DNA from: Eledone cirrhosa
Lineage: Eukaryota
Assembly: GCA_964016885.1 (NCBI GenBank)
Contig: OZ024740.1
Location: 411,432,001 to 411,496,000, forward strand
DNA length: 64,000 bases
Reading direction: 5' to 3'
The position numbers and the translations under genes were made by a program. Below, one piece after another: positions 2,909-37,992 of the stretch. Positions within the stretch are counted from its first letter, which is position 1. The number at the start of each line of letters is the position of its first letter. The notes under the pieces were generated by a model. That model saw only the letters and a program-made list of their open reading frames with translations, searched no databases and was not told the origin of the DNA.

Positions 2909-4378
2909 CAGCAATGATATATGTATGCAATTTGGTATTAGTAAGTGTGGAGTCATTGTGATGAAGAGGGGTAAGTTGAGCAGAGGTAACGGAATCCAGT
3001 TACCAACAGTTGAGATGATAAAGGAAATTGACTCTGAAGAAGGATACAAGTATTTGGGCGTTCTGGAGGCTGATGACATCAAGAACAAAATAATGAAGGA
3101 ATTGATAAGAACTGAATACATTTGGAGAGTAAGGAGCGTATTAAAGTCACATCTGAACAGTAGGAATGCCATAAGTGCAGTAAATTCCCGAGCTGTGTCT
3201 ATTATTAGGTACAGTGCGGGAATTCTGAGATGGAACGTTGCTGAACAAAAAGAAATGGATAGGAAGACTAGGAAGCTATTGACTATCTAGAACATGTTCC
3301 ACAAGAGGAGGGATGTCGATAGACTCTACTTAAGGAGATCTGAAGGTGGAAGAGGTCTTATCAGCATAGAGGACTGTGTTCAGATGGAGAAAAACAACCT
3401 ACACAAATACGTGACTGATAGTAAGGAGCCAATGCTCAGAATTGTACTGAAGGAGGGGACAATAGACCAGGGGATGTCCAAGGAGGAAATAACATCAAGG
3501 AGGAAGAGCAGCCTTCAGGAAAAATCCCCTCATAGTACCTTCTTTGAGAAAACTGAATTTAGAGATCCACAGACATGGAACTGGTTGAAAAGAGGAGACC
3601 TTAAAAAAGCTACAGAAGGAATGTTAATGGCTGCGCAGGAGCAGGCCCTCAAAACGAAGTGGTTGAAACACCATATTTACAAGGAGGAGGCTAGCCCACT
3701 GTGCAGGATCTGTAGAGAGAGAGAGGAGACTGTGGCTCACATTGTATCCGAGTGTAAACACCTAGCCCAGACTCACTATAAGGGCTGGAGACATGATGTG
3801 ATGGGCAGGGTGATCCACTGGCACCTATGCAAAGTAAACAATTTACCACATTCTGAGAAGTGGTATGAGAATAAGCCAGAGTCGGTGATAGAAAACGATC
3901 AGGTGAAGGTGCTGTGGGATTTTAGGATACAGACGGACAAAAAACTGGAACACAATAGACCTGACCTGGTGGTTGTGGACAAAGAAAAAAGATCGTGCCT
4001 GATTGTGGATGTGGCCTGCCCGTTCGACACGAGAGTGCAAGAGAAGGAGAGGGAGAAAATTAACCGATACCAGGACCTAAAGTGGGAGGTGAAAAGGATT
4101 TGGAACTGCCATGAAGTCAAAGTGATCCCGATTGTCATAGGCGCACTGGGGACTATCTCCAAAGGTTTCCAGGGATGGTTAAAGAAAATCGGCCCCTTCA
4201 CGCTTTTTGGAACGCTTCAAAAGGCATGCTTGCTAGGAACGGCAAGAACCCTCCGATACGTCCTGAATATCTGAGGCTGCAGGTAGTGGCTTGATATTCA
4301 ATCCAACGGACTTTCCAGTTAACCAACATCAATGACTGAGATTCAAGGAATAACAATATTAATAATAATAATAATAAT
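2909..4378 (+). mobile_element. 5'-truncated R4/Dong-like LINE, second family, with one premature stop
   Basis: ORFs 2880-3290 and 3294-4274 are in the same frame, separated by TAG. They contain YKYLG, CRIC..ETVAHIVSEC, RHD and RPDLVVVD...VDVACP. The element starts right after (AAT)n and ends in (AAT)n at ~4360-4378. Confidence 0.9.
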
Positions 4379-4563
4379 TGTTTCTACTTTAGGCACAAGG
4401 CCAGCAATTATCCAGTGCATTACTGGTACTTTATTTTATCGACCCCGTAAGGATGAAAGGCAAAGTCAACCTCGGCGGGATTTGAACTCAGATCGTAAAG
4501 GGACATAACTATGCTGGAAAGCATGGCGTCCGACTCTCCACCGATACTGCCAATCCACCACCC
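4379..4563 (-). mobile_element. tRNA-derived SINE inserted in the LINE (TAA)n tail
   Basis: The minus strand carries A-box TGGCAGTATCGG and B-box GAGTTCAAATCC. attaataataataataataat is duplicated on both sides. Confidence 0.9.
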
Positions 4564-4587
4564 ATTAATAATAATAATAATAATAAC

Positions 4588-4820
4588 AATACAAGGACAC
4601 TTTGTTAAGCCTTCATTACGTTTATTGATTTGGTGACGCGTGTTTCGCTATTGGTCAGCTCAAGGTTCGACCTGTATCGATCTGCTCCGACTCGTCCGAT
4701 GACCATTTGATTCCAGTCTCGAGCCAGATCGGTACAGATCGAACCTTGGGCTGATCAATAGCGAAACCCGTGTGACCAATCAATAAACGTAATGAAGGCT
4801 TAACAAATCGTCCTTGTATT
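4588..4820. repeat. Imperfect inverted repeat (~95-bp arms) of a Penelope pLTR-like sequence
   Basis: aatacaaggac..ttaagccttcattacgtttattgatt..tttcgctattg..gttcga.ctgta.cgatctg is mirrored at ~4725-4820. A third copy lies at 44421-44550. Confidence 0.75.
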
Positions 4821-9744: not shown

Positions 9745-10661
9745 AATATATACATATACTGAGAGAGAGGGAGTGAGAGAGAAGGAGGGGTTTGTAGAAA
9801 TTAAGATAGGAAGTGAATAATGACAACACATGAAAACAATTGGAAAACATAAAACTGTAAAAGTAAAACATAATCTATATGTGAGAGCAAATGTTGCAGG
9901 AGAAGCAACGAAGAAAGAAAGAGGCCGAGGGAAGGATTCTAAATAAATGGGGGAAGTCAACTATAACACTGAGTAGGAAAACGAATAAATTTGATGTAAA
10001 ATTTAGAAAATAATAATTTGGAACGGAAATGATTTAGCTGGAAAATAGCAGGGAAATGGAAGGGAGTAAGGAAATAATAGTGTTGACAAACATATAGAGA
10101 GTAAAAAACGAGAGATAAAACGGAAGAGTAAAGGTCTATTAGAGAGATGGAGATAAACATAAATTAATTACATTTGAAGAGTAACATTGTAATAATATTA
10201 AATAATTAAGTATTAAATAAAAATGAGATGGCAATCATTAGATGTTATTAACTACTAGGGCATAAAATACAAAAGAGAAAAATGGGTGAAGAAAGGAGGA
10301 TCAGAAATAGGAGCACAGAATATGTGTAAAAGAAGGAATACATAAGAACGAAAATAAATGAGATCCACATCCCTCTCTCTCTCTTTCTCTCTCCTTCACT
10401 CACACACTTTCTGCAGATAGATAGATAGATAGATATGTTTCTTTATTAGCCAAAGGGGCACAAAAGAAGGGGGAAGTTTACATAAAATAAATACGTGTAA
10501 AATATTATCACAAATGCAATTTAAAAATTAGTCGATTTTCCCCCAAAAAGGGGAAACATTTCATATGGGTAACACATACCCCCGAAAAAAAATGTGCAAC
10601 CCTCATCTCCAGGAGTACGAAGAGTTTGTACTCCTTTCTTCTCCTCCTCTTTTTCCTCAAC

Positions 10662-13600
10662 CTACAGGCTGATATAGAGAGAAGGCCCATTCACTCGGGC
10701 CATTCTCGCCACTTTCACCCACCTTTCATAAAACTTACTCTCTCTCCATCCTGATTCTTCTTTCAAAGTGGTATTTGAAAAAAAAGAATCAGTTGTTGGC
10801 CGGAGAGAATGGTGTCTGACCTCAGACCTTTCAACCTTGTCCACCATACAACCTCTTTCGCCATAGCTATCACACAAAGGAAAACCGCATCTCCTTCGCT
10901 TTTGAAGGAGGGTGGCGGTTTGATCATGACAATGGACTCGGTGGTCAGCCGGATTGGTCCCACCCGCGACAATAGTCGTTCTACATAGCCCCACAGGTCG
11001 GTGACGCCCGGGCAGTGTATGAATGCGTGCGCGACGGTTTCTTCGTCTCGCACGCACCTCGGACAGATCTTTTTTGCAGAGTCCCTGCTCGGGCGCCCAT
11101 GTCTGTAGAGCTTGTCTCGAACTGGTAGAGCTCCTCGGTAGCACTGCCAGGCCAGGGACTTTTGGAAGTTGTCCATCGGTCCCGGGCGGAAGGTCCTACC
11201 GAACAGACTGGCCAGTTCGTCTTCCTCTACGCCTACAGTTTCACCGAGCACGTCGTCGCACTTGGTGCGGATCAACCCTCTATAGAATGACGAAGTGGAG
11301 TCTCCACTGATCGCCGAGTCCGCCTGCCAGAGGGCTGTGAGCGCCTGAGCACATTCGATGTGCCAGTCGCCCATTTTCCTCGGTCTTTGCTTGACCCAGG
11401 ACTGCAGCTCGGTCAGCAAGACGAGTCGTAGGAAGGCTCGCCTCGCGAACGGGGCCCACACCGGTTGTCCGGTGAGGAATACGTAGAGATGCCGCATCCT
11501 GAGCGCGTGTTTGCGCATCGTCAGTCACGGCATCCCCAGCCCTCCGTTGGTAGGGCGTTGGCAGCAGATGGATCTTCTCACCAAAGGAGCCCGCCTCTTC
11601 CAAGGGAATTGGAAGAGCGCGCGCTCCCTTTTGGCGAGCGTTTTGGCTGGACAAGGCACGACGGTCAAGCGGTAGTAGATGACGGACGCTATAAAAGTGT
11701 TCGCCACTTCCGCTCGACCTTTCAAGGATAGTTTGCACTCGGCCCACTTCTGGGTGAGTGCAAACACCTTGGCCGACACCTCGTTCCAGTTCTTCTCCAC
11801 CTGGAGGTCCAGACAAAACCAGACCCCGAGCAGCTTTACTGGTCCTTCCGTCCAGCGTCCGACGACGCTATCGTAAGGCATCTGTTTTCCTCTCCACGAT
11901 CCGAGTTGCAAATCGATGGACTTGTCCCGGTTCAGCTTCACTCCTGTGAACCTTTCTTATTCCTTCAGTAAGGTGCCGACTTCCGCGATTTGCGAGGCGC
12001 TTTTTCACCATTACTGTAATGTCGTTGGCGTAGGCCGACGCCGCTTTCCGCAGTCCCGGTTCCAGAGGGATTCCCTGCAACAGCTCCAACTTCCGCAGTA
12101 GTGGCTCGAGAGTCAAATACGTACAGAAGGGAGGAGAGAGGGCATCCCTGTCGAATGGATCGTGTGATATGGAACGGCTCCGAGAGGTAGCCGTTCACCT
12201 TAACTCTTGAGCAGATGTTGCTGTTATGCATTGCAGCAATCCAGCCCCTGAACACGGGTCCGAATCCTGCCGCCTCGAGAACCGCATCCAGGTAACGATG
12301 GTCAACCCTATCGAAAGCCTTAGACTGATCCAAGTTGATCAGGGCTCCACCGAAGCCGAGTTTACACCCTACCCTCTCTATGATGTATCGCATGAGGTGG
12401 AGTTTGTCGTGTATGTACCTGGTCGGGATTGCGCATGTCTGCGCCTCTCCCACCAGGTTCTCGACGACAAGCGCCAGCCTCTTTGCCAACACCTTGGCCA
12501 AAATCTGTAACTCTGTGTTCAGCAGAGTTATGGGCCGGAAGTTGCCTATGTCATCCCCCTTATTCTCGTCCTTCCTGACTAGTGTGACTACTCCCCCGGT
12601 CACAGAAGTGGGAATTCTCCCGTTCTGTTGCCAGTTGCAGTAGACCGCTTCCAGGAGACCGGAGAATAAGTCCGACATTGTTACGTAAAATTCGTAGGGT
12701 AGACCGTCGAGACCTGGAGATTTGCGTTTGCCGCATTGGCTCAGCGCGTCCCCTATCTCAGCGGCTGAAATCGGCTTTTCGCAGAACTTCGCCTCGCTGT
12801 CAGAGAGTCGCGGTAGGCCGTCGAGGTATGGACTGAAATCCATAGTCCCTCCCGGAGCGCCTCCCTGCCCGAACAGCTGAGCAAAGTGCCGCAGAAAGGC
12901 CGCACACATCTGCTTAGGCTCACGTATCACGCGACCGTTTTGGTCCTTCAAAGACCGAATCGTGGACTTGTTGCCACTTTTTGCCTCCGTCACTCGGGCC
13001 CAGCTAACAGCTTTGGCTCCCTCGTTTCCCAGAGCACGTATTTTGCTTCTGACAACGCAGCCCTCATGCTTTGCGTCGAAGAACTGGTCCAAGTCCCTTC
13101 TCGTTGCTAGCACGCTGGCTAAGTTGCCACTTCTAATTGCCTCTTCTACTTTATCTACCAGTTCTTTCTCGGTTCTATTTCTATCTAACGCTAATACTTT
13201 ACTAAAAACTAACGAGTCTAATGTAACTGCCCTCTTGAGAGAGTACCACCATCTGTTGTTGACAATGGCCCCTGTCAAGTGCTGTTTAACTAAATGCTAA
13301 TCCGTCTACTGTAGGCTTTGCATGTCGGTAACAACAAGTTCAGTTTCCAGTAGCCGGGTCCTTGTCTATGGGTTCTCTCAAGGTTGACCATGCAGGTCAC
13401 TAGTTTGTGATCTGAATAGGCAACCATGAACATTTGTGGACAGCTTAACATGTCGCTATTCTTATTTCTAACTAGAACCCTATCTAGGTACGATCTAGAT
13501 GTTCCGCCACGATTAGTCCACATCCACAGTGGCACAGTCGGAAAATCTAGTCGATATCTATCGGCCAGGTCAAATCCGCCGATTAACTGTTTGAGGATGT

Positions 13601-14063
13601 TACATGCTCCCACATAGTCCCAACGTGCATCTAGGATTCCATTCCAGCCCCCCACTAAAAGCAAGGAGCGGGACGTTCCCAGAAAAGTCTCTAGACGTTT
13701 GAAGAAGTGTGGCCGCGGTGTCCCGGATGGGGCATATGCGGCCACCAGCCTGAAGGCTCCACCTTCACTACCTTCAACGTCTAGGACCACCAGTCGACCC
13801 TCCGGGTCCAGATGTACCGTCTGTGTTACGAGGTGTTTCCGCAGCAAAACGGCAACCCCGCCCACACCTCCCGGCTGACAGAGAGATGCGTAGATCTCAA
13901 AGTCATCGAAGATGGGGGCCAGCTGTCACTCGCTGTGGATCCTGGACTCGCAAATGGCTACTACATCCATACTGTGCGACCTGAGGTCGTTTAAGAGTTT
14001 GCCCTGTTTCCAGGGCATCCCCAGGCCCCGTACATTCACATATCCAACTCTTATCTTGACCAT
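10662..14063 (-). pseudogene. Tx1 ORF2 (APE endonuclease, RT, CCHC), frameshifted
   Basis: Starts MVKIRVGYVNVRGLG. Motifs: YLDRVLV, YSDHKLV, SPGLDGLPYEFY, FRPITLLN, LDQSKAFDRV, QGCPLS, GGLGMP, CPRC..ETVAHAFIHC. Confidence 0.9.
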
Positions 14064-14078
14064 GTTGGTTCTGAAAAG

Positions 14079-15262
14079 TTAAAAGAGAAGAAAACACTCA
14101 CCACTTCGTCTCCCGGGGATCAGACCGCACGATTTCCATGGGGGTGTTAGAGGAGTTGTCTGGGTGGGTGGTGGTCTCCGGCGTGGTGGGGACGGAGATG
14201 TTTGGTGGGGTGGGGTGTCTGGGGTGAGGGTGGGTAAACTTTTTAAAAGGACGCGGTTAATGGGTTTAACACAAGGATTACCCACGTCTTTAGGAAAGTT
14301 TTCCTTTAAAGACTTATAGGTGTCCGTTGGGACCCTAATCACCTTTAAATTAGGTTTGTCTACACAGTTCGAAAAAGTTTTCCCTTCGGTTTTCACCGAA
14401 GGGTCGTTGGAGATGACCTCCATTAAAGTTTTGTTTTTACTGTTTATGTATGTGTAATGTTCTTGTTGTGTTGCGGTGGTTTTTGTCTGTTGTTCTTGTG
14501 GGAGCTTTCGTTTTGTTGTAGGTGTTTGTGTTTGGAGTGATGCCGTGGTTTTGTTTTTGGGACGGGGGTTTTGTTTGTAATGTTTGTGTTGTTTGTGTTG
14601 GTGGTTGTATGTTTGTAGTGATGTTTGTTGTTTTTTTGTTCTTGTGGTGTCTTTTCTTCTTTCTTTTCGAACGGAGAGGCTCTCCCTCATCATCATTTGG
14701 TGATGATGTGGGGACCTCGTCCGTTGTGGTGTCTGTGTTATTTAGAAGGGGTATGTTTTGGGGAGCTGTTTTGTTTGTGGGTGTTTTTGCAGTGGTTTTA
14801 GGTGGAGTGGGTTTGGGTGGGACTGTGCTTGCAGGTTGGTTTGTTGTTCTTGTTTTGGTTGTGTGTGCGTCTTGTTGTTGTTGTTGTTGTGGTGGTGGTG
14901 TTGTTGTTTTGGGTGTTGGCAGTAGTGCCTCTTTTTCTTTTTTAGTTAACTGAGGACAGTAAGCCTTCAGGTGACCACTTCTTAAACAGTGGTAACATGA
15001 AGACCGCCTACCCTCAACAGAAATGTTTATGTGTGAAATTCCATCCAGAGGCACACGTTGGGGTATTTTAGCTATCCGTTCTGGCCTCATTTGGACCAGA
15101 ACTTCCATGCTTGTACCATTGAATGTGCCTCTGGAGGACTTTCCCACCGAAATGATGGTGTATTCGTCGAAATCGATGAAGCCAGTTAGAATCCACCAGA
15201 CGTTTATATTTGGTGCAATGTTCAACATTTTTATTTTTTGTGTTTTTTTCCCATATATGTGG
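14079..15262 (-). pseudogene. Tx1 ORF1 (gag-like), partial
   Basis: Zinc knuckle CYHCLRSGHLKAYC followed by a T/P/Q-rich low-complexity tail. Confidence 0.8.
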
Positions 15263-15277
15263 TAGATAGATAGATAG

Positions 15278-15342
15278 ATGGTCGACCATATCAAATGCCT
15301 TAGACTGATCTAAATTGATCAGAGCCCCACCGAAGCTGGGAT
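15278..15342 (-). pseudogene. ~65-bp isolated Tx1 RT fragment
   Basis: Encodes SFGGALINLDQSKAFDMVDH and directly abuts (TCTA)n. Confidence 0.75.
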
Positions 15343-15865
15343 AGACACATGTGCTGAGCTCGCTCGGTAAGTTTCGTTTAAATTTATCTGGAAATTGTGA
15401 ACTGTAAACTTTCATTTTTGTACCATTTTGTAGAGAGACTGCCAGGTCAAATTTTGATCTGGTAAGTCTCTCAAAATATTCTACGCCTTTAGGCGAAATA
15501 GTGTTGTAAAAATGTTATCTTTCGAAAAATTTCGAAAAATCCTATTTTGATAAAAATGGCTGAAGCATCTTCACCAACATTCTAAGGAGGAAAGGGGAAG
15601 ATAAGCTTACAGCTTCCCCCTGCCACTGTCACAGTAGCAGAGGTAAAAAAGAAAGATCAGCCAGAGGAAGGATTTTCTCCACCTGTTGACCGACAACTTG
15701 ACGTTGCCATGGCAACAACCTAAAGAACCAGCGGCACCAGCAACAGCAACAACAACAACAATGCGACGGAAATATTGGATTTTGAACACGCGAGGAAGTT
15801 ATATATAAAACAAACCACGACACAAAGCATACTGCGTGATTTGCCTTGCGTAAAATAGGACGGGC

Positions 15866-16203
15866 TGAGGTGATGTAATATCAGCAAGGTAAAATGTGGC
15901 GGGGTGAGGTGTTGTAATGCCAGTAAAGTTAAATACGGCGGGGTGAGGTGTTGTAATACCAGTAAAGTAAAATACGGCGGGATGAGGTGTTGTAATACAA
16001 ATAAAGTAAAATACGGCGGGGCGAGGTGTTGTAATACCTGTAAAGTAAAATACGGCGGGATGAGGTGTTGTAATACCTGTAAAGTAAAATACGGCGGGGC
16101 GAGGTGTTGTAATACCTGTAAAGTAAAATACGGCAGGATGAGGTGTTGTAATACAACTAAAGTAAAATACGGCGGGATGAAGTGTTGGAACGGCAGTAAA
16201 GTC
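15866..16203 (+). repeat. 39-bp minisatellite (~8.5 units), copy 1
   Basis: Unit aaagtaaaatacggcggg(at/gc)gaggtgttgtaatac(ctgt/aaat), with no spacers. Confidence 0.92.
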
Positions 16204-16298
16204 AGGTTAATAAATAAACAATAATAATTAAAACAAAGAAAATACAGAACAGAATAGAATACAAGAATAGGATCGCCCCAAATCGGTAATACCTCGTA

Positions 16299-16666
16299 TA
16301 GATAGATAGATAGATTTCTTTATTAGCCACAGGGGCACAAAAGAAGGGGACAAATACAAAGGGGGAAGTTTACATACAATAAAAACGTGTAAAATGTTAT
16401 CACAGATGGAATTTAAAAGTTAGTCGATTTTCCCCAGTAGAGGGAGACAGCTTATATGGGTAACACATACCCCCGAAAAAAATGTGTAACCCTCATCTCC
16501 AGGAGGACGAAGAGTTTGTACACCCTTCCTCTCCTCCTCCTTTTCCTCAACCTACAGGCTGATATAGAGAGAAGGTCTATTCCCTCGGGCAATTCTCGCC
16601 ACTTTCACCCACCTTTCATAAAACTTGCTGGGGTACAGCACCTCTCTCTCCATCCTGATTCTTCTT
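16299..16666 (-). mobile_element. Tx1 3'-end fragment B1 with (TATC)n tail and TSD
   Basis: Homologous to 10436-10760. cctcgtatagatagatag is present at both ends (~16292 and ~16667). Confidence 0.88.
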
Positions 16667-16672
16667 CCTCGT

Positions 16673-16707
<35 letters not shown>

Positions 16708-19700
16708 TATTTCTTTATTTACCATAAAGGCATAACAAGAAGGGATAAATACAAAGGGGGAGTTTACATACAATCGAGTAAAAAGGGTATAAAATGAAAA
16801 TAATCGAAAGCAACCTCAAAAGGGAGGGGACGTGATGGGGGTTGCACACCCCCCCGAAAAAGTGTGCAATCCTTTGCCCAGGGAGCACATGGAGAAGGTG
16901 CTCCCCTCTCCTTCACTTCTTTACCTACAGGATGGTATACAGAGAAGGCCCATTTACACGAGCCATTCTCGCCACTATCACCCACCTTTCATAAAACTGC
17001 CTGTGGCCAAGCACCTCTCTCTCTATTCTTATCCTTCTTCCGAAGTGATATCGGAAGAAGTAGACCAGACTATGGCCAGAGAGGATGTTGCCTGACCTCA
17101 GACCTTTCAATCGTGTCCACCAAACAACTTCTTTCAACATGGCTATTACGCACAGAAAAACCGCCTTTGCTTCCTTTGTGAAGAGGGGGGGGGGGCGGTT
17201 TGATTGTCATCACGGACTCAGCGGTCAATTGAATCGGCGCCACCCGCGACAGCAGTCATTCGGCGTAGCCCCACAGATCAGCCACGCCCGGACATTGCAC
17301 CAATGCGTGCGCAACGGTTTCTTCGTGACGCACGCATCTAGGGCAAATCTTTTTCGAGGGATCCCTGCCCGGGCGCCCGTGTCTGTAGAGCCTCTCTCGA
17401 ACGGGTAGAGCCCCCCGGTAGCACTACCAGGCTAGTGACTTCTGGAAGTTGTCCATTGGTCCCGGGCCGAAAGTCCTACCGAACAGGCTGGCCAGTTCGT
17501 CCTCTTCCATGTCCAGCGACTCTCCAAGGGTGTCATCGCCCCTGCTAGCCACCAGCCCTCTATAGAATGATGAGGTGGATTCTCCACTGATGGCCTGGCC
17601 CGCTTGCCAGAGAGCCCTGAGCGCCTGAGCACACTCAGTGTGCCAGTTTCACAGTTTTCCGGATCTTTGCTTGACCCAGGACTGCAGCTCGGTGAGCGAG
17701 ACGAGTCTCGGAAAGGCTCGTTTCACGAACGGAGCCCACACCGGTTGACCAGTGAGGAATACCTGTAGGTGCCGTAGCCTTAATGCGTGCCTACGCATCA
17801 TCAACCACGGCATCCCCAGCCCTCCTTTCGAAGGTTGTTGGCAGCAGATGGATCTTCTCACCATAGGAGGGCGCTTCATCCAAAGAAATTGGAAGAGCAT
17901 GCGTTCCATGGTGGTGAGTGTTTCCTTAGGGCAAGGCACGACAGTCAGGCGGTAGTAAGTGACGGACGCTATGTAAATGTTCGCCACCTCCGCCCGGCCT
18001 TTTAGGGACAGCTTACACTTGGCCCATTTCTGGGTTAGTGCAAACACCTTGTTCGTAACCTCGTCCCAGTTCTTTTCCACCTGGAGGTCCGGTCCAAACC
18101 AGACCCCAAGCAACTTTACCGGGTCCTCCGTCCAGTGTCCGACGACACCGTCGGGAGGCATCGGTCTGCCTCTCCACGTTCCGAGTTGCAGCCCGATGGA
18201 TTTTTCCCGGTTCAGTTTCGCTCCTGACAACCTTTCGTAATCCTCCAGTAAGGTACCGATCGCCTCGATCTCCAAGTCGGTCGATACCATTACTGTTACG
18301 TCATCGGCGTAGGCCGACACCGCTTTGCTCAATCCTGATTCCAGGGGGATACCCTGCAACAACTCTAACTTCCTCAGTAAAGGCTCGAGAGTCAATACGT
18401 ACAGAAGGGAGGAGAGAGGGCACCCCTGTCGAATGGATCGTGTGATTTCGAACGGCTTCGAAAGGTAGCCGTTCACCTTGATCCTAGAACAGATGTGGTT
18501 GCTATGTAAGGCAGTGATCCAGCCTCTGAAAACAGGACCGAACCCAGCCGCCGCTAGCACCGCATCCAGGTAACCATGGTCGACCCTATCGAAGGCCTTA
18601 GACTGATCCAAGTTGATCAGGGCCCCACCGAAGCCGGGTTTGTTGCCAACCCTCTCTATGATGTATCGCATGAGGTGGAGGTTATCTTGAATGGACCTGG
18701 ATGGGATAGCACATGTCTGCGTATCTCCCACCAGGCTACCCACGACAAGCGCCAACCTCTTTGCTAACACCTTGGCCAAAATCTTTAACTCTGTGTTTAG
18801 CAGGGTTATGGGCCGAAAATGATTTATACTATCCCCCTTGTTCTCGCCCTTCCTCACCAGCGAGACTACGCCCTTGGCTACAGAACAAGGAATTCTCCCG
18901 TTCTGCTGCCAATTGCAGTAGACCGCTTCGAGGAGTTCGGAGAAGAAGACCAGCATTGCTAAATAAAGTTCGTAAGGTATACCATCGAGACCTGGAGATT
19001 TGCGTCTGCTGCATTGGCTCAGCGCATCTCCGATCTCATCAGCCGAGATTGGTCCCTCGCAGGACTCTGCCTCTTCGCTCGAGAGACGCGGCAGGCCGTC
19101 GAGGTATGGACCGAAATCCACGTCCCCGCCCGGACCCTCGCCTCCCCCGAATAATCGGGCAAAGTGCCTTTGAAAGGCCTCGCACATCTGCTTAGGCTCC
19201 CGGATCACCCGTCCATCCTCGTCTTGCAACGACCGGATGGTGGATCGATTTCCACTCTTAGCTTCTGTCACGCGGGCCCAGCCAACGGCTTTGGCCCCCT
19301 CATTACCTAGAGCACGTATTTTGCTTCGAATGACGCAGCCTTCGTGCTTTGCATCGAAAAACTGGTTCAAGGCCGTCATCGATGCCAGCACTCTGGCCAC
19401 ATCTTCGCTCTTGATTGCCTCTTCTAATTTACCTGTTAATTCTTTCTCGTTTCTATTCCTATCGGCAGCTAACATCTTGCTATATCTTATTGATTCTGTT
19501 CTAATCTCTCTTTTGAGAGATGCCCACCATCGGTTGTTGACGATTGCACCCGTCAACCTCTCCTTAACTAATCTGCTAATCCGGTTTCTGTAAGTCTCTT
19601 TTGCCGGTAAAGACAAATTAAGTTTCCAGTAACCGTACCCTGTTTATGTGTTTTCTCGAGATTGACTACGCAGGTCACTAATTTGTGATCCGTATAGCCA

Positions 19701-19958
19701 ACCGTGCGCATTTCTGGACAGCTTAATATGTCCCTCTTCTTACTTCTAACTAAGAATCTATTTAAGTACGATCTAGATTGACCACTGTGGTTTCTCCAAG
19801 TCCAGGTAGGCACAGTTGGAAAATCTAGTCGATATCTATCGACCAAGTTAAAACGGTCGAGTAACCCCTTGAGGCTGTTACACCCCCCTCTATTAGGACA
19901 TGCTCCTGCATAGTCCCAACGTGCATCTAGGATGTCATTCCAATCCCCCGCTAGAAGC
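16673..19958 (-). mobile_element. Tx1 copy B2, 5'-truncated within the APE domain
   Basis: The 655-aa ORF 17649-19616 has YADD, QGCPLS and FRPITLLN. The (ATAG)n tail is at 16673-16708, and the 5' end runs into (ATAG)n at ~19959. Confidence 0.92.
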
Positions 19959-19966
19959 ATAGATAT

Positions 19967-20026
<60 letters not shown>

Positions 20027-20476
20027 GTAGATAGATAGATAGATATCTTTCTTTATTTGCCACAGGGGCGTACAAAAATGGGACATTACAAGACGTGACG
20101 GCGGGGGTTTTACATAAAAATAACTTTAACATTAATAAATAACAATAAACTAAATATAATAAAATAACAATTGAAATCCCCAATAGGAGGGGGAGGGACG
20201 TTACTGCAGGGTTGTTTTACACCCCGTGGATAGAACAACCCTCAACACCAGTAACACGTTTTGTAGGTGTTCCTGTCTTCCCTCTGTTTATCTTCCTTAA
20301 CCTACAGGTTTATATACAGAGAAGGCCCATTCACTCGGGCCATTTTTACCACATTCACCCACCTTTCAGCGAATTTACTGGGGTGTAGCACCTCTCTCTC
20401 CACTCTCACGTTTCTTCTGAAGTGATACTTAAAGAAGGGGATAAGTTGTTGTCCGGAGAGAAAGGTGTTTGCCCTC
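19959..20476 (-). mobile_element. Tx1 3'-end fragment B3 with long (TATC)n tail
   Basis: Encodes the ORF2 C-terminus RANTFLSGQQLIPFFKYHFRR...NGPSLYINL. (ATAG)n at 19959-20046. Confidence 0.85.
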
Positions 20477-23400
20477 ATAGATAGATTTCTATTTATTTGC
20501 CACGAGGGCACAAAAGAAGGGGACAAATACACAGTGGGGGAGTTTACATAAATCGAGTAAAGAAAAAAAGGAATAACAATAATAATATAATAATAAAAAG
20601 TCCTCAAAAGGGAGGGGGCGTGTTGGGGATTGCACATACCCCCGAAAAGTGTGCAACCCTTTTCGCGGGGGAAGCCCAGAGAGGAGGCGCTCCCCCTTTC
20701 CTCTTCACTTCTTCACCTACAGAACAATGTAGAGAGAAGGCCCATTTACACGAGCCATTCTCGCTTCTTTCACCCACCTTTCATAAAACTGTCTGGGGCC
20801 AAAGCACTTCTCTCTCCATCCTGATCCTTCTTCCGAAGTGGTATCGGAAGAAGTAAACCAGGTGATGGCCGGAGAGAAAGTCACCCGACCTCAGACCTTT
20901 CAGGCGCGTCCACCACACAACCTCTTTCATCATGGCTATTACGCACAGAAAGACCGCCTCTGCTTCATTTCTGAAGGGAGGAGGCGGCTTGATGTTCACC
21001 ACAGACTCGGCGGTTAATCGAATCAGCACCACACGCGACAGCAGTCGTTCGACGTAGCCCCACAGATCGGCAACGCCCGGGCAGTGTACCAGTGCATGCG
21101 CAATGGTTTCCTCGTCGCGCACGCATCTGGGACAGATCTTTTTCGCTGGATCCCTGCCCGGGCGCCCGTGTCTGTAGAGCTTTTCTCGAACGGGCAGAGC
21201 CCCCCAGTAACACTGCCAGGCTAGGGACCTCTGGAAGTTGTCCATGGGTCCCGGGCCGAAAGTTCTACCGAACAGGCTGGCCAGTTCGTCCTCCTCCATG
21301 CCTAGCGACTCTCCAAGGGTGTCGTCGCCCCTGCTAGCCACCAGCCCTCTATAGAATGTCGAGGTGGATTCTCCACTGACAGTCGGGTCCGCTTGCCAGA
21401 TAGCCGTGAGCGCCTGGGCACACTCGGTGTGCCAGTTGCCCAGTTTTCTCGGTCTTTGCTTCACCCAGGATTGCAGCTCGGTGAGCGAGACGAGCTGTGG
21501 GAAAGCTCGCCTCACAAACGGGGCCCACACCGGCTGACCGGTGAGGAATACCTGTAGATGCCGTAGCCTCAATGCGTGCCTACGCATCAACAGCCACGGC
21601 ATACCCAGCCCTCCTTTCGAAGGGTGCTGGCAGCAGATGGATCTCCTCACCATGGGAGGCCGCTTCTTCCAGAGGAACTGGAAGAGCATGCGTTCCATGA
21701 TGGTGAGCTTTTCCTTGGGGCAAAGCACGACGGTCAGGCGGTAGTAGATGACGGACGCTATGTAAGCGTTCGTCACCTCCGCCCGACCTTTCAGTGATAG
21801 TTTGCACTTGGCCCACTTCTGGGTCAGTGCAAACACCCTGCTCGTCACCTCGCCCCAATTCTTCTCCACCTGGAGGTCCGGTCCGAACCAGACCCCGAGC
21901 AGCTTCACCGGGCCCTCCGTCCACCGCTCGACGACACCGTCTAACGGCATCGGTTTGCCCCTCCACGTTCCGAGTTGCAAACCGACTGACTTGTCCCGGT
22001 TCAGCCTAGCCCCCGTCAGCCTTTTGTATTCCTCCAGTAGGGTGGCGATCGCCCCGATTTCCGAGGCGTCCGCCACCATTACTGTTACGTCGTCGGCATA
22101 GGCCGAGACCGCTTTGTGCAATCCCGGTTCCAGGGGTATGCCCCGCAGCAACTCCAACTTCCGCAGCAGTGGCTCGAGAGTCAATACGTACAGAAGGGAG
22201 GAGAGGGGCACCCCTGTCTGATGGACCGGGTGATTTGAAACGGCTCCGAGAGGTAGCCGTTTACTTTAATCCTAGAGTAGATGTTGCCACTGTGCATGGC
22301 AGAAATCCAGCCCCTGAAAACGGGTCCGAAGCCCGCCGCCGCTAGCACCGCATCCAGATAACCATGGTCGACCCTATCGAACGCCTTAGATTGATCGAAG
22401 TTGATCAGGGCCCCACCAAAGCCGGGTTTGTTGCCAACCCTCTCTATGATGTATCGCATGAGGTGGAGGTTGTCGCGAATGGACCTGGACGGGATAGCGC
22501 ATGTCTGCGCGTCTCCCACCAAACCACCCACCACAAGCGCCAACCTCTTCGCCAACACCTTGGCCAAAATCTGTAACTCTGCATTCAGCAGAGTTATGGG
22601 CCTAAAGTTACTTAAGTTGTCCCTCTTGCTCTCGTTCTTCCTCACTAGCGTGACCACGCCCTTGGTCACAGAACAGGGAATTCTCCCGTTCTGTTGCCAG
22701 TTGCAATAGACAGCCTCGAGGAGTTCGGAGAACAAGACCGGCATAGCTAAATAAAGTTCGTATGGTAGACCATCGAGACCCGGAGATTTGCGTCTGCTGC
22801 ATTGGCTGAGCGCTTCCCCGATTTCAGTGGCTGTGATTGGCCTTTCGCAGCACTCCGCTTCGCCGCTCGAAAGACGCGGTAGACCGTCGAGGTATGGACC
22901 GAAGTCTACATCCCCGTCCGGCCCCCCTCCCCCTCCGAACAGTCGAGCAAAGTGCCTTTGAAAGGCCTCGCACATCCGCTCAGGTTCAAGGATCACCCGT
23001 CCATCCTGGTCTCGCAAAGACCGAATGGTGGATTTAATCCCACTCTTGGCTTCTGTCACGCGGGCCCAGCTAACAGCTTTGGTCCCCTCGTTTCCTAAAG
23101 CACGTATTTTACTTCGGACAACGCAGCCTTCGTGCTTCGCGTCAAAGAACTGGCTCAACGCCGTTCTCGCCGCTAACACTCTGGCCACGTCTCCGCTCCT
23201 AATCGCCTCTTCTAGTTTATCTGTTAACTCCCTTTCCTTCCTATTTCTATTCGCCGCTAGTTCCTTACTGTAACCTATCGAACTTACTCTAATCTCTCTC
23301 TTTAGAGATACCCACCACCTGCTGTTGACGATCGCTCCCGTCAACCGCATCTTAACTAAGCTACTAATCCGGTTCCTGTAATCTTTCTTTGCCGGCAAGG

Positions 23401-26100
23401 ACAAGTTCATCTTCCAGTAACCGGGACCCTGTCTATGCGTTCTATCAAGGTTGACCACGCAGGTCACTAATTTGTGATCTGAATAGCCAACCATGATCAA
23501 TTCTGGACAACTAAATACGTCCCTATCCTTACTCCTAACCAAAAACCTATCTAGGTACGATCTAGATTGTCCACTGCGGTTTGCCCAGGTCCAGGTTGGC
23601 GCAGTTGGACAATCTAGTCGAAATCTATCGACCAGGTCGAATCGATCGAGTAACCCCTTGAGGCTGCTACACCCCCCTCTATCGGGACATGCCCCTGCAT
23701 AGTCCCAACGCGCATCTAGGATTCCATTCCAGTCCCCCACTAAAAGCAGGGATCGCGACGTTCCTAGAAAAGTCTCCAGACGCTGGAAGAAGTCGGCTCT
23801 TTCAGCCCCGAAGGGGGCATAAAGACCGACCAGTCTGAAAGTCCCGCCTTCACCGCCTCCGACGTCCAGCACTAGTAATCGACACCCCGGGTCCGACCGA
23901 GTGAACAATCTGTACGTCGAGAGCCAGACGTTTATCCAGCAGTACGGCAACCCCCCCCCCCCGCCTCCGGGTTGACAGAGAGATGCGTGCATCTCAAAGT
24001 CATCGAAGGCGGGAGCCAGCTGTCGCACGCTGCTGATCCGACTCTCGCAAACAACCATCACATCTATACTTCGTGACCTGAGGTCAAGCTGAGCCCAGGC
24101 CACACGCGTTCAAACAGCCAACTCTCAATTGATCTATTTTGGTGTTGAAAGTGAAGAAAGAAAAGCACCTACCTCTCCGGGTTGTATAATTTCCATGGCG
24201 TCAGGTGTGTTGGGTGGAGGGATGTTTTGTGGTGGTGTGGGGGTACCCGAGTGTGGTGGGGTTGGGGTATTTGGAGTTGTGTCAGGGAGAGGGGAGGTTA
24301 TGGGGAAATCTTTCAAGAGGACGCGATTTAACGGTTTTAAACAGGGGGGGCTCACGTCTTGTCTAAAGTGTTCTTTTAAGGAACGATAAAGGTCCAGAGG
24401 GACTTTTATCATTTTTAAATGGGTGAAGTTCTCTGTTGAGATAAAGTTTGGCCCTTCGGTCTGCACCAAAGGGCTATTGTTTATTAATTTAAACAGTTTT
24501 TTGTTTTCTTTATTTATATATATTGTATTGCAACGTCTTTTTTTGTGATGCTGTCAATGTTTCGGAGAGGGGAGGCGCAGCTTTAATTTTGTTTGTTGAG
24601 GGTGGGGTGTTTTTGATTGGAGTTGGTGTTTGTGTGTGGGTTATTTGTGGTGTGCTGGGTGTGTGCTTTCTTTTTTTTCTTTTAACTTGTCTGAAGGCTT
24701 CTCCTCTTTCTTCTTCAGAAGTTGGGGGAAACTTTTTCAGCGCTAGGTGGGAGGGACGTGGTGTCTGGTTGTTTTTTTTTTGCGGGAGGGGTAGATTTGT
24801 TGCTGTTTTTTTTTGTTATTTGTTTGGAATGCGTTTTGTGGTGGTGGTGGTGATGTTTGTGTCGTGCTTGTGGTTGGTGATGGTGGTGGTGGTGTTTGTG
24901 TTGTGGTTGGTGATGGTGGTGGTGATTTTTGTGTCGTGCTTGTGTTTGGTGCTGGTGGTGGTGATGTTTCTGTTGTGCTTGTGGTTGGTGGTGTCTGTAT
25001 TTTGTTTGCTGTGTGTGGTATTAGTGTATTTTTGGAGGTGGGTGGTGTTGGTGTACTGTTTGTGGTGGGTGTGGGCAATAGTCCTTTTTGGGGGATACGT
25101 TTCGGGCAGTTGGCCTTAACGTGTCCCCTTTCCGTGCATAAATAGCATGCTGGTCTTCTCCCCTCTACAATTATATCTATTGGGGTGAGGTCATCCAGCC
25201 AGATGCGATCCGGGATTTGTGCCACTCTTTCGGGCCTCATTTGGACTAGTAGGTCGAGGCCCATTCCCAGGAACGCATCTCCAGATGCCTTCTCCATTGA
25301 CAGCACTGTGTCCTCGCCCATGTCTATGAAGCCAGTAATAGCCCACCAGAAGTCCATTGTGGGCAGCATTGTTTGTACTTTGACTCTCTGTGTTCTTCTA
25401 CCCATGTAGGAGGGATAGAAGCTGTATGTTGTTGAGGAGAGTGGGCTTAGGGAAAGCTTCTGCGCCGTTTCCTTGTCTTTTGTTAAGACCGAAATGCTGC
25501 CATAGAGTATGAAGAGAATATTCTTCATATAGTCTTTTAGGACCAACTCTATCTCCATTTGGCTGGGCTGTGCTGGCTTTCTCGTTTGGTTTAATATCGT
25601 TCTGAAGAGAACTGTGCTCTCTGTTCTCGCTTTCTTGAATTCTGGGGGGGGGGGGGTTAATGGAAAACATTCCGTTCTCCCCCAAGACTATGTGTTTCTT
25701 TGCTTCGGCCAGTTTTTCTCTGGCGGCAGTTAAGTCTATTGGTGTATATGTTATGGACTGTTTTGTTTTCTGGGCGAAAGTTGCCTCGTTGTTATTTGTG
25801 TTCTTATTTTCTGTTTGTTTGTTTTCCGTTTGCTCATTTTCCGTAACATCTTTAGTTCAATTATCTATTGATTCTGTTAACTAAATCGCCTATATTTCTA
25901 TAATCAAAATGCAATTAATCTGAAAAATAAATCTGGACACCAAACCTTAAAAAAGCTATAATGAAAATGGGATTAGGAACGCCAAAATATTGGCAAAAAA
26001 TGCTGCTACATTGCCAACACCTAACAAAACTTAGCAAAACAGAAATGGCTAAAGAAATCAAAACAAATAAAAAGCATAACGTGGTTTCTGAAAAATAGGA
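20477..26100 (-). mobile_element. Tx1 copy B4, near full-length (ORF1+ORF2); 5' boundary approximate
   Basis: ORF1 pieces span ~24134-25900 with CYLCTERGHVKANC. ORF2 lies in 640-aa and 476-aa overlapping frames. Short (ATAG)n tail at 20477-20486. Confidence 0.9.
20717..24130 (-). pseudogene. Tx1 ORF2 of copy B4 (few frameshifts)
   Basis: Motifs: VCES, GDWN, YLDRFLV, YSDHKLV, QGC/PLS split by a 1-nt deletion, YADD, CPRC..ETIAHALVHC. Confidence 0.9.
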
Positions 26101-26528
26101 CTCAAAAGTGTTTTACAAAACCAAAGCCGTCCCACCAGAAACTCTCAATATCACAATGAACTAAATTTCTTAAACATAACTGCAAAATATGACCTTATGG
26201 TGGCGTGGCGAAATTTGAATGTCATTATGTCTGACTGTCGCATCTGATTCAACATATACAGGCTGGTCCTACCAAAAAGTAATGAGAAACAGTTTATGTT
26301 CCCATCGCAGTATCGTCCTCTTTGGAGGAGCTGGTTTGCCGAATCTTACAGTGCATTCATATCGCACATTCTCCATGCACTTGCCAGAATGCACACGATC
26401 ATGTGTCCATACACTTGTAAGCAGCCTCTCTTCCAAACTGTAGGAGCTCTGAAATAGAAAATTATCTTATCATTATTTATATTATAATTAATGATATTAT
26501 ATATAATAATACTAAAACAAAAAATAAT

Positions 26529-26702
26529 TGTTTCTACTTTTGGCACAAAGCCAGCAATTATTACTGGTACATTATTTTATCGACCGTGTAAGGATGAAAG
26601 GCAAAGTTAACCTCGGCGGGATTTGAACTCAGATCATAAAGGGCCGTAACTCTTTGCTGCAAAGCATGGCGTCCGACCCTCTACCGATACTGCCAATCCA
26701 CC
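26529..26702 (-). mobile_element. SINE
   Basis: Consensus match. TSD aaaataat on both sides. Confidence 0.88.
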
Positions 26703-26747
26703 AAAATAATAAAAGTTAAAACAATATGTGACAAGGGAAGACAAGAC

Positions 26748-27042
26748 AAAATACGGCGGGATGAGGTGTTGTAATACAAATAAAGTAAAATACGGCGGGG
26801 CGAGGTGTTGTAATACCTGTAAAGTAAAATACGGCAAGGCGAGGTGTTGTAATACCTGTAAAGTAAAATACGGCAGGATGAGGTGTTGTAATACAAATAA
26901 AGTAAAATACGGCGGGATGAAGTGTTGTAATAGCAGTAAAGTCAGGTTAATAAATAAACAATAATAACTAAAACAAAGAAAATACAGAACAGAATAGAAT
27001 ACAAGAATAGGATCGCCCCAAATCGGTAATACCTCGTATAGA
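26748..27042 (+). repeat. Second copy of the 39-bp minisatellite (~5 units) plus ~100 bp of unique flank, duplicating ~15970-16302
   Basis: Same units, followed by gtcaggttaataaataaac...ggatcgccccaaatcggtaatacctcgtataga. Confidence 0.92.
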
Positions 27043-30574: not shown

Positions 30575-30589
30575 TAATAGTATTCATTT

Positions 30590-31690
30590 TTATTATTATT
30601 ATTGTTCTTTGAGTCTCATTCATTGATGTTAGTTAACTGGAAAGTTTGTTGAAATGAATATCAAGCCGCTACCTGCAGCCTCAGATATTCAGGACGTATC
30701 GGAGGGTTCTTGCTGTTCCCAGCAAGCATGCCTTTTGAAATGTTCCGAAAAGCGGGGCGGGGCCAATTTTCTTTAACCATCCCTGGAAACTCTTTGAGAT
30801 AGTACCTAGTGCGCCTATGACAATCGGGACCACTTTGACTTCATGGCAGTTCCAAATCCTTTTTACCTCCCACTTTAGGTCCTGGTATCGGTTATTTTTC
30901 TTCCTCTTCTTCTCTTGTACTCTCGTGTCGAATGGGCAGGCCACATCCACAATGAGCACGATCTTTTTTCCTTGTCCAAACCCACCAGGTCAGGTCTATT
31001 GTGTTCCAGTTTCTTGTCCGTCTGTATCCTAAAATCCCACAGCAGCTTCACCTGATCGTTTTCTATCACCGACTCTGGCTTATGCTCATACAACTTCTCA
31101 AAATGTGGTAAATTGTTTACTTTGCATAGGTGCCAGTGGTTTACCCTGCCCATCACATCGTGTCTCCAGCCTTTATAGTGAGTTTGGGCTAGGTGTTTAC
31201 ACTCGGATACAATGTGAGCCACGGTCTCCTCTCTCTCTCTCTCCACATATCCTGCACAGTTGGCTAGCCTCCTCCTTGTAAATATGGTGTTTCAGCCACT
31301 TCGTTTTGAGGGCCTGCTCTTGTGCAGCCATTAGCATTCCTTCTGTACCCTTTTTAAGGTATCCTCCTTTCAACCAGTTCCATGTCTGTGGATCTCTGAA
31401 TTCAGTTTTCTCAAAGAAGGTACTATGAAGGGATTTTTCATGCTCTTTCTCCTCGTTGTTATTTCCTCGTTGGACATCCCCTGGACTATTGTCCTCTCCT
31501 TCAGTACAATTCTAAGCATTGGCTCCTTACTATCAGTCACGTATTTGCGTAGGTTGTTTTTCTCCATCTGAACACAGTCCTCTATGCTGATAAGACCTCT
31601 TCCACCTTCAGATCTCCTTAAGTAGAGTCTATCGACATCACACCTCTTGTGGAACATGTAGAATTATTATTATTATTATTATTATTATAG
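30590..31690 (-). mobile_element. 5'-truncated R4/Dong-like LINE, same family as 2909-4378, decayed
   Basis: Near-identical peptides (MFHKR.DVDRLYLRRSEGGRGL...TARTLRYVLNI) in broken frames. (TAA)n on the element strand at both ends. Confidence 0.9.
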
Positions 31691-35775: not shown

Positions 35776-37992
35776 TTAACAAATAATAGTTAAATGCAGT
35801 CCACTTAGGTGAAGTCCAGTTATGGTATTCCAGGTAGTGGATGATATTAACGCTTGGCTTGGTTTGACTCAACAAGGCGTTTTCATAGTGATGCTGCAGG
35901 TATGCTGTAATTCCTATATTGTAAACACTTGGAGTAATAATAATTTAAAGCTATGTTATGTTGGTTCGATTCACAGAGGTTTGAATCTTATGAATTTAGT
36001 GGCTATTCTATGTCTGCAGATGATAGATCTTTCTAACTTATTATTAAGTAGCCTTTTAACATTTCTAAGGATATACAATAGCTCAAGATCACACAGCCCG
36101 CAATAGGACATCCCTGTACTATAGGTTTTAGCAGCCGACAACTTCGACCAGTTGATACTGTAGTTAGTGTTGCTGTCCTTCAATTCCCATATTTTTCTGG
36201 CGAGGGTGGTGGAACCCATAAGTGCACGGTTTTTCATTGAGTGCCTGTGCACATACCATCTTTTCTTAAAAGAACTCGCGGTGGATCCTATGTAATTCCA
36301 GGTGGAGTTACCCGAGATGACAGTGCACATGTACACCAGGCTCGAATCGAGACATCTGTTCGCCAATGGGCACCTATCTGGGAGGTGACAGTTACAGTTT
36401 GAGGTGCTATTTTGTGCAGCTTTTACATTCCTGTTTAGTACTCTGTTATAAGTGGGTTGTGATATATGCCCAATGGGGTTTTGCTGCTGCGCGTTTCTAT
36501 GCGCTTGTGGTTGTGATGTTGTGATGAGTTTGTGCTTATGTATAGGTGCAATTGATTTACTAGAGATATTTCTGTGGTTGATCTTGCGTATGTGTGATTC
36601 TATGTTAGCTGCTGTTGAGAATGAGAGTTTAATAGTAGATCTATTGAGTATTTTGTGATGTCTATGCGAGATAGGGAAGTGTTTATCTATTAGTTTAAAG
36701 AATGTAGAGGGCAGTCTAGTTTTTATAGAGGAGTTGAATATTGGGTTGAACCATAGGTATTTTCTTTGTCTGTTTCTTCTATTGTTTCTTGGGTTTACGT
36801 TATTAGTGTTTTGGCCGTTTACTCCAGGTGTTACATGTCTAACCCTATGTCTAGTCAAGCTATTCCTATTATTATGTGAGCGGTTGGAGTAGTAATTACT
36901 AGGATTGTTTATGTTGTCCTTATTCACTATATACTGTAGTTTATCTTTATGACCGGCCCTACTTAATGCTGCATTATAATAGTCAGCATGCTCGTTAAAG
37001 ATTTCTAGGTTTGAGGATAAGCGGGATATTCGGAGGGATATACTACGTGCTATGGATTTAATTATGGATTTGGGGTGATTTGAGTTGTAACTAATGTAGG
37101 CAAGATTTTCATTATTTTTGTGGAAAGGTTCTATTAATCCAGTATTTAGATTTAGAGTTACATCTAGAAAATTTACCTTCTTATGGTTTAGTTCGTAGGT
37201 AATACTTAGGCCTAGTTTTTTGAAGAATATTCTAATATTTTTCCTTAGTCTTTCCATTATCTGGTTGTTTAGGTTCCTAGCTATAAGTAACGTGTCGTCC
37301 CTATAAATTCCTCCTTGGAGGTTACTGAATTCCTTATGTAGGTCGTGTGCTATGAATAGCCCCACGATATCTGTAATTTGCGCAGAATCATTTGATCCCA
37401 TTGTTATATCGAAGCTATTTATTCTATCCTTTCTTACCCAGTAGTTATTTTCAAATTTTATGATAGTCCTTCTAGCCGCTATTATTATTTCAATTTCATC
37501 ATGGGTAAGATCAGAGTTATTTTGGGCAAATATAAGCGCCTTATCTAGGGTAGCTGGGGATATGGATGCATAATAGTCGTCTATATCAAATTGTATGAAG
37601 TTACACGTCTCCCTATTTTGTATTTTATTGAACCATTTAATTGCCTCGTTAGTGTTGCCCCATAAATTGATTTCTAGTTTACCCTTTATTTGTGCGATTA
37701 CCCTATCTAGAATGTTTTTGCTAATTTTACCTATGTCTGACTTGGATGGGCATATTAATCTAATGGTGGGATTAGTTTCAAAGTTATTTTTGTGATCTTT
37801 CAGGTTAAATGTAGGGTTGCACGGGGTAAGCGGTTCGGTCCTATCTGAAATTCCGAGTTTATTAACTATCTTGAGGCCCTCCATGTTAATGCTGGTGAGT
37901 GTAGATTCATTTGTTTTTTTATATTTTTTATGTAGTTCACGCTGAATAAAGTTATTGTATGTGTTAATGTCCATAGAGTATACGTTTGATAT
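35770..37992 (-). mobile_element. Penelope-like element (Naiad-type) inserted in (TA)n
   Basis: The ORF above plus a ~200-bp 3' region ending in (TA)n at 35694-35769. The 5' end is truncated at a short atatatat. Confidence 0.82.
35971..37974 (-). CDS. Penelope-like element RT + GIY-YIG endonuclease (Naiad-type), 5'-truncated but uninterrupted
   Basis: RT motifs: LKDHK..F..NPTIRLICP, FDIDDYYASI, TMGSNDSA, YRDD, FLDVTLNL. Linker CNCHLPDRCPLANRC (CxCx5Cx5C). Endonuclease: VY...YIGST...FKKRW..H, CGLCDLE, CRH. Confidence 0.88.
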   Translation of the reverse strand: MDINTYNNFIQRELHKKYKKTNESTLTSINMEGLKIVNKLGISDRTEPLTPCNPTFNLKDHKNNFETNPTIRLICPSKSDIGKISKNILDRVIAQIKGKLEINLWGNTNEAIKWFNKIQNRETCNFIQFDIDDYYASISPATLDKALIFAQNNSDLTHDEIEIIIAARRTIIKFENNYWVRKDRINSFDITMGSNDSAQITDIVGLFIAHDLHKEFSNLQGGIYRDDTLLIARNLNNQIMERLRKNIRIFFKKLGLSITYELNHKKVNFLDVTLNLNTGLIEPFHKNNENLAYISYNSNHPKSIIKSIARSISLRISRLSSNLEIFNEHADYYNAALSRAGHKDKLQYIVNKDNINNPSNYYSNRSHNNRNSLTRHRVRHVTPGVNGQNTNNVNPRNNRRNRQRKYLWFNPIFNSSIKTRLPSTFFKLIDKHFPISHRHHKILNRSTIKLSFSTAANIESHIRKINHRNISSKSIAPIHKHKLITTSQPQAHRNAQQQNPIGHISQPTYNRVLNRNVKAAQNSTSNCNCHLPDRCPLANRCLDSSLVYMCTVISGNSTWNYIGSTASSFKKRWYVHRHSMKNRALMGSTTLARKIWELKDSNTNYSINWSKLSAAKTYSTGMSYCGLCDLELLYILRNVKRLLNNKLERSIICRHRIATKFIRFKPL

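Follow-up and report, generated by a model that had tools for sequence, protein, structure and literature searches.

LINE families of the L1/Tx1 group at GATA repeats, and a sister lineage at ATT repeats, in the genome of Eledone cirrhosa

Introduction

Five LINE copies lie close together on the minus strand of a 64,000-nucleotide stretch of the Eledone cirrhosa genome (the window), and the 3' end of each runs into a GATA repeat. The question raised by this locus is whether the repeat is the target of these elements, their product, or only a place where they accumulated. How the sequence specificity of APE-type retrotransposons is gained or switched is an open question.

LINE copies in the window

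A first-pass annotation, made from the letters of the window, described five minus-strand copies (A and B1–B4) of an APE-RT LINE. All five are present, with remnants of the APE, RT and zf-RVT domains. The features of the locus are as follows.

10416–10435: (GATA)5 run, 3' flank of copy A
10436–15262, minus strand: copy A, 5'-truncated; ORF1 and ORF2 (APE, RT, zf-RVT) broken
15263–15279: GATA run (units 15265–15276), 5' flank of copy A
15274–15336, minus strand: 63-bp RT scrap of B3 type (94%), abutting the GATA run at the 5' flank of A
15338–15567, plus strand: 5' end of a B3-related element (76%), inverted relative to the copies
16008–16302, plus strand: local duplicate of 26748–27042 (95%)
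16298–16314: GATA run (16301–16312) and unique bases; 3' copy of the ~21-bp target-site duplication of B1
16315–16668, minus strand: copy B1, 354-bp 3' fragment, 97% to a full-length copy
16669–16707: 5' copy of the B1 duplication and (GATA)8 (16676–16707) at the 3' end of B2
16708–19959, minus strand: copy B2, 5'-truncated inside APE, 98% to a full-length copy
19959–20045: GATA run of ~22 units, from the 5' end of B2 to the 3' end of B3
20046–20477, minus strand: copy B3, 430-bp 3' fragment, 96% to a full-length copy
near 20477–20486: 2-unit GATA run between B3 and B4
20486–25849, minus strand: copy B4, near full length; ORFs broken, first 326 nt missing

All five copies are broken or truncated. 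Identity to natural full-length copies elsewhere in the genome is 96–98% for B1–B4; for A it is 89%, measured against one of the B1 type. Adjacent copies are 70–84% alike. The single family first proposed is instead a clan of at least four GATA families. Their 3' UTRs are less distinct than had been stated, A and B1 being 84% alike over 371 bp. The description of the 3' ends as AATAAA joined to (TATC)n without poly(A) is accurate for all five, which read AATAAA(TA)GAAA, two nucleotides, and then the TATC repeat.

The 5' ends and the stacking agree with the first-pass annotation only in part. Four of the five 5' ends run into TATC repeats, and in three of these four the repeat is the 3' flank of the next copy. 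The exception is B4, which stops at 25849 with neither repeat nor duplication. B1–B4 form a contiguous head-to-tail stack (16298–25849). A is separated from B1 by ~1 kb containing the RT scrap, the inverted 5'-end piece and a 39-bp minisatellite. The joining of the B3-type scrap to the inverted B3-related 5' end is possibly due to internal priming or rearrangement. B1 has the same unique 9–11 bp at both of its ends, and these bases on both sides of its ~21-bp duplication indicate that B1 was inserted into the 3' repeat of B2. Outside the GATA runs of the array, the remaining window has just one run, of 3 units.

The array is flanked by a local duplicate (15850–16302 and 26748–27042), with nine and five copies of the 39-bp minisatellite. 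The un-inserted twin site at 27042 contains no GATA run. At the window's site the repeat was thus imported or expanded afterwards, which runs counter to a pre-existing target there, and some tail copying is possible. The 295-bp flank duplicate was also considered as a dispersed repeat with many empty sites; it has two local copies genome-wide.

Three other features of the window were seen. A degraded retroelement at 39348–42700 (plus strand), with an RT match at 41213–41860, is possibly Penelope-like. A 1.1-kb inverted pair (92%; 3292–4376 and 30578–31659) with a weak zf-RVT match represents 3' fragments of another LINE family. A stop-free frame of 684 aa at 35974–38025 (minus strand) has no Pfam match.

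Encoded proteins and classification

Natural near-intact ORF2s of ~1,150 aa contain an N-terminal APE, an RT and a C-terminal zf-RVT in Pfam searches. The best PDB match of ORF2 is human L1 ORF2p (E 3e-47), and R2 is matched at 1e-21. The domain layout and the L1 ORF2p match place the clan, on sequence grounds, in the L1/Tx1 group. 5' truncation and target-site duplication, as in L1-group non-LTR retrotransposons, are present. The domains are consistent with Tx1-clade membership. The closest named homologues are proteins of Argonauta hians (64–67%) and Octopus bimaculoides (55%) and an algal protein named TX1 (25%). Clade placement via named homologues was set aside, since protein searches gave almost solely unnamed matches, cluster membership contributed nothing further and the Atlas names were generic.

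A Tx1-clade ORF1 is expected to be of type I, with an RRM and a CCHC knuckle and no Transposase_22. The Pfam search of ORF1 gave one weak zf-CCHC match (E 0.008, below the cut-off), and neither Transposase_22 nor RRM matched. The Atlas look-alikes of ORF1 are zf-CCHC and ZCCHC3-type RNA-binding clusters (0.90–0.92). ORF1 of lineage C, the sister lineage described below, has no match of zf-CCHC or ZCCHC3 type.

Flanking sequences of copies across the genome

To see the flanks of copies elsewhere, the 30 best loci for each of the four 3' UTRs were collected. Four window copies, two segmental duplicates and one 5'-less locus were removed and one hit was added, giving 114 copies, which as best BLAST hits to the window copies are a non-random sample. 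The proposed targeting of GATA is borne out by this census: the GATA motif is found in 94 of 114 3' flanks and 80 of 113 5' flanks. According to the rule described by Kojima (2015; PMC4494074), a family is target-specific when one sequence type occupies more than 20% of its flanks, and the share seen here is far above this value on both sides.

The 3' flank, read from 2 nt past the element end, is TATCTAT in 94 copies, TATC plus another sequence in 7, TATATAT in 6, and something else in 7. Positions +1, +2 and +3 of the flank are T, A and T in 113, 113 and 114 of the 114 copies. In the background, TATATAT is 30–80 times commoner than TATCTAT. The specificity is relaxed, as TA, TC and TGTC contexts are also used.

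The 5' flank was scored by a TATC-phase 7-mer within 30 nt of the 5' end, which occurs in ~1% of background 34-nt windows. Among full-length copies, 37 of 39 have the motif; among truncated ones 43 of 74 do, and one further copy has no flank. In fifteen of the 31 misses among truncated copies, the element sequence itself is broken by recombination, an indel or a variant; 5 others are loose fits, and 11 show nothing. That is, 11 of 59 true truncated 5' junctions have neither repeat nor duplication, and 5 more fit just loosely.

The exact 3' junction has 11,880 matches in the 3.0-Gb genome, against 31 for the reversed control. Together with the ~1% background rate of the 7-mer, this excludes a chance origin of the junction pattern. 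A separate study with the same species label supplied raw DNA reads, of which 1,642 cross from the 3' end into TATC repeats.

Head-to-tail stacking on the same strand is likewise a genome-wide pattern. A same-strand neighbour is present in 58 of 114 copies, and an opposite-strand downstream neighbour in 2. Among the first 100 junctions of one contig (C1), there are 27 same-strand and no opposite adjacent pairs within 6.5 kb, and same-strand clusters hold 50 of these junctions, where uniform placement would predict 1.6. Strand concordance on the same contig was also seen beyond the arrays, with 17 same and 3 opposite at 6.5–50 kb, and 15 and 7 at 50–300 kb.

Random insertion followed by passive accumulation at repeats, or an assembly artefact, is the least probable explanation of these data and hardly credible. 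In its favour, microsatellites abound in the genome, and the array is spanned by none of the reads or contigs in the sequencing runs examined, where contigs break at the repeats. Such accumulation is at odds with the base-exact phase, the strand polarity and the distinct targets of sister lineages described below. An artefact is at odds with the limited identity of adjacent copies, the proper duplication of B1 and the presence of the junction class in raw reads.

The 58 copies that abut a relative and the clustering on C1 could also mean that the elements recognize their own ends or those of relatives, array building being a telomere-like strategy. This is very improbable: no relative lies within 150 nt of 56 of the 114 copies, several target-site duplications sit in unique DNA with no element nearby, and the neighbours upstream of B4 vary in family and length. 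The copies are dispersed across chromosomes and scattered over all large contigs, and ~31 Mb separate the window from the end of its contig of 443 Mb. The arrays are not at chromosome ends or telomeric repeats as those of telomeric retrotransposons are, and the "self-targeting" of the first-pass annotation is a by-product.

Of 27,717 (TATC)4 starts without a C before them, a denominator inflated by interrupted-run starts, 6,459 follow AGAAANN. Thus about one in four (GATA)4 run starts counted lies at a clan end, which bears on the origin of microsatellites and on marker design in this animal group. Parts of the clan were also observed in sequencing runs of several other organisms, one of which has many contigs at 90–99% identity.

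Target-site duplications and the origin of the 3' repeat

Among the census copies, 21 duplications containing non-repeat bases were detected. Fourteen start exactly 2 nt after GAAA, and three more at or before this position (motif edge). These 17 duplications, at offsets of 2 or less, are 14–21 bp long with a median of 19. The other four start at offsets 3–6 in compound repeats and were excluded from the length summary. All 17 sites read TAT[C/A]TAT 3' of the cut, and the insertion point is fixed on the element strand as Y^TAT[C/A]TAT. The pyrimidine at −1 is seen in 14 of 17 sites, a bias inflated by the repeat context. A true microsatellite, at first supposed to be the target, is not required: 0–2 perfect units are enough at 8 of 17 sites, and 60 of 114 census copies have at most two perfect units at the 3' end.

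At (TA)n sites the copies are bordered on either side by the same TA duplication and have gained no TATC. The start of the duplications at +2 and these copies without TATC indicate that the 3' repeat is pre-existing DNA. The proposal that the element regenerates its target as its tail is not supported by the same data, 17 of 21 duplications starting at or before +2. The second target is created by target-site duplication, and the tail is mostly not made by the element. A minority of insertions may have added repeat units. L2, CR1 and RTE elements have microsatellite tails, whose repeat units are synthesised. A microsatellite-tail LINE is expected to have extra units after the element end, ahead of the duplication; in 17 of 21 cases there are none.

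A different reading assumes a loose endonuclease. The specificity would then be due nearly in full to the pairing of an RNA that ends in (UAUC)n with any nicked DNA that matches it, and repeat units would now and then be copied as a tail, in the manner of L2, CR1 and RTE elements. It is compatible with the position of AATAAA, ~6–8 nt before the insertion point in all families, with the lack of poly(A) at the junctions, with the twin site at 27042, and with the share of (TATC)4 starts that follow AGAAANN. It is nevertheless unlikely. The insertion phase is fixed to the base and does not slide by repeat units, and the (TA)n-site copies gain no TATC. The bias at −1 lies upstream of the cut, where priming RNA is unable to pair, although the repeat context inflates it.

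5' end joining

The 5' ends were compared in full-length copies whose 3' flank leaves pure repeat within 14 nt. This departure is kept at the 5' flank, as a full duplication, in 8 of 8 B2, 0 of 17 B4, 0 of 2 B1 and 1 of 1 B3 copies. The 5' flanks of B4 end in TATCT in 27 of 30 cases. In one B3 copy, 16 nt of extra repeat separate a 21-bp duplication from the 5' end of the element, and one lineage C copy has a 50-bp match continuing into its ATT run. The 5' junctions of B4 are thus in register with the repeat and lack the long duplication, which suggests a repeat-bearing leader on its RNA. If the cDNA end copied from such a leader anneals to the target, the 5' flanks of full-length B4 copies are not independent evidence of targeting; those of truncated copies and of B2 are. 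B2 and B4 offer a natural contrast for the study of 5' end joining.

Co-transduction of upstream elements with B4 was rejected, as the upstream neighbours differ in family and length and no displaced duplication is seen. In four B4-type copies (L244, L248, L250 and L255) the sequence 5' of reference position 390 is of another kind, which suggests a 5' UTR swap.

A sister lineage at ATT repeats

A further copy in the window led to a second lineage, here called lineage C.

47913–51530, plus strand: old, 3'-clipped copy of lineage C

Lineage C has the same 3' terminus as the GATA families, followed by (ATT)n. In young copies, (ATT)n is directly 5' in 11 of 12, the twelfth having no exact head match, and ATT follows the 3' end in all 9 copies with this end in view. 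Among 29 older copies, 4 lack the 3' motif; 21 of the other 25 have ATT at the 3' side and none has TATC. ATT or ATC is seen at the 5' side of 8 of 25 older copies, against 4–5% in the background. A 3' ATT run occurs in 0 of the 114 B census copies. The shared 3' terminus has 32,075 matches in the genome, and a hand count of the first 100 gave 44 followed by TATC, 44 by ATT and 12 by other sequences.

In the phylogenetic tree, a single clade (support 100/99) unites the four GATA families, within a 99/99 group that includes lineage C and the Argonauta protein. The tree serves for the in-group only, with long-branch warnings and unnamed or uninformative outgroups, and the ancestral target is not readable from it. 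GATA families and lineage C are 64–67% identical in ORF2, 57–62% in APE and 74–75% in RT. The APE is thus more diverged between the lineages than the RT, and 25 APE positions are common to all four GATA families and different in C. Both facts weigh against a specificity derived almost wholly from RNA pairing. A diagnostic cluster at APE residues 82–87 aligns with the L1 loop preceding the GVA strand, a loop which we take to contact DNA. The βB6–βB5 hairpin, which is implicated in endonuclease specificity (PMC1950540), is nearly alike in the two groups, N-R/H-S/T-G in GATA families and N-R-I-G in C, and this favours RNA pairing. The endonuclease of Tx1L from Xenopus, on the other hand, was shown to be sequence-specific in vitro, and loop grafts into the L1 endonuclease altered nicking just partly (both described in PMC1950540).

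Also abundant is a SINE-like repeat, ~230 bp long and ending in an (ATT)n tail (window 4355–4590, 26505–26726, 51707–51913 and about ten more). C copies are often flanked by its tails. There is a resemblance between its last 45 nt and the LINE 3' ends, with mean scores of 26–33 against 21–22 for shuffled sequences and 0–4 of 300 shuffles reaching them, although 2 of the 12 motif hits compared were not SINE ends. By this resemblance, the SINE may be a non-autonomous partner of lineage C.

Mechanism of insertion

The fixed phase, the duplication length, the polarity, the stacking and the two targets are direct observations. They are well explained, in our judgement with good probability, by insertion of the clan at TATCTAT or (GATA)n sites through a phase-fixed endonuclease nick and priming, with a duplication of ~19 bp, and of lineage C likewise at (ATT)n. 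The endonuclease nick would lie at a constant phase of the GATA strand and would prime reverse transcription. AATAAA just before the end of the element would put RNA cleavage inside the downstream repeat. RNA ending in a few UAUC units could then pair with the nicked primer, and hence no poly(A) would be copied. As the flanks show, each insertion leaves, through the duplicated target, a repeat-bearing site on both sides, and later copies of any GATA family enter those sites on the same strand, generating arrays like B1–B4.

At the other end, full-length RNA of B4, and probably of B1, B3 and C, may start inside the upstream repeat. The cDNA end would anneal to the target repeats and the long duplication would be lost; B2 is presumed to have no such leader. 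At (ATT)n, lineage C would insert in the same way, and the likely cause of the switch between GATA and ATT is a combination of endonuclease changes and the repeat carried on the RNA.

A broader scenario can be speculated, and it is offered tentatively. GATA and ATT lineages might have split through a few endonuclease changes together with repeats at both RNA ends. Each would spread its own target, seeding a large share of the GATA microsatellites, and the ATT-tailed SINE would be mobilised. A swap of one endonuclease loop or of the RNA repeat would reprogram the target. The clan would be an uncatalogued, cephalopod, Tx1-like one. As two young and abundant lineages in one genome with ORF2s ~65% identical, they make the roles of the endonuclease and of RNA–DNA pairing testable.

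Comparison with known target-specific elements

Tx1L, much like the clan, has a long target-site duplication of ~20 bp. The clan has the same domain layout as Tx1L, Keno and Tx1-1_ACar, whose targets are a DNA transposon, U2 genes and telomeric repeats, respectively, while those of the clan are GATA and ATT. Repeat targeting as in the clan is also known from Waldo, Mino, SART and TRAS of the R1 clade and from Dong of the R4 clade, which are different clades. Dong itself has an endonuclease of the restriction-like type. The R4 clade is listed as having this type of endonuclease (PMC4640811), and Dong is described as targeting (TAA)n repeats, as lineage C does (PMC3812793). SART1 ends in poly(A) and is reported to need at least three target repeats (PMC7265360), whereas the clan has no poly(A) and accepts 0–2 perfect units.

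In Octopus vulgaris, 13 recently active L1-Tx1 families are annotated (PMC13282606), and they may include the clan. The words "target" and "GATA" are absent from the main text of that paper, and a GATA or TATC target is not mentioned in the text available of the two octopus papers PMC13282606 and PMC9115989. In the full-text literature searched, to which Repbase, Dfam and most subscription papers do not belong, there is no description of a Tx1 element specific for GATA or TATC. It is quite possible that the clan is already catalogued in Repbase, Dfam or the figure and supplement of PMC4494074 that list Tx1 targets.

The nearest comparison is with the microsatellite-inserting Kibi and Koshi of teleosts (Tx1 clade) and the crocodilian Tx1 elements on (TTCC)n and (TTTC)n, as described in PMC4494074 and PMC3812793. 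Like them, the clan consists of APE-RT LINEs that prefer a microsatellite and have close relatives with different repeat targets. Unlike these vertebrate elements, whose targets are TC, TTC, TTCC and TTTC, it targets TATC and ATT, with ~32,000 shared 3' ends. The (TC)n or (TTC)n targets that define Kibi and Koshi are not those of the clan, and this comparison is by target, not by tree. In its mode of insertion, the clan works like Kibi and Koshi. Microsatellite targeting by Tx1-type elements is already known; the additions made here would be the GATA target, the ATT-targeting sister lineage and the in-phase 5' joining of B4.
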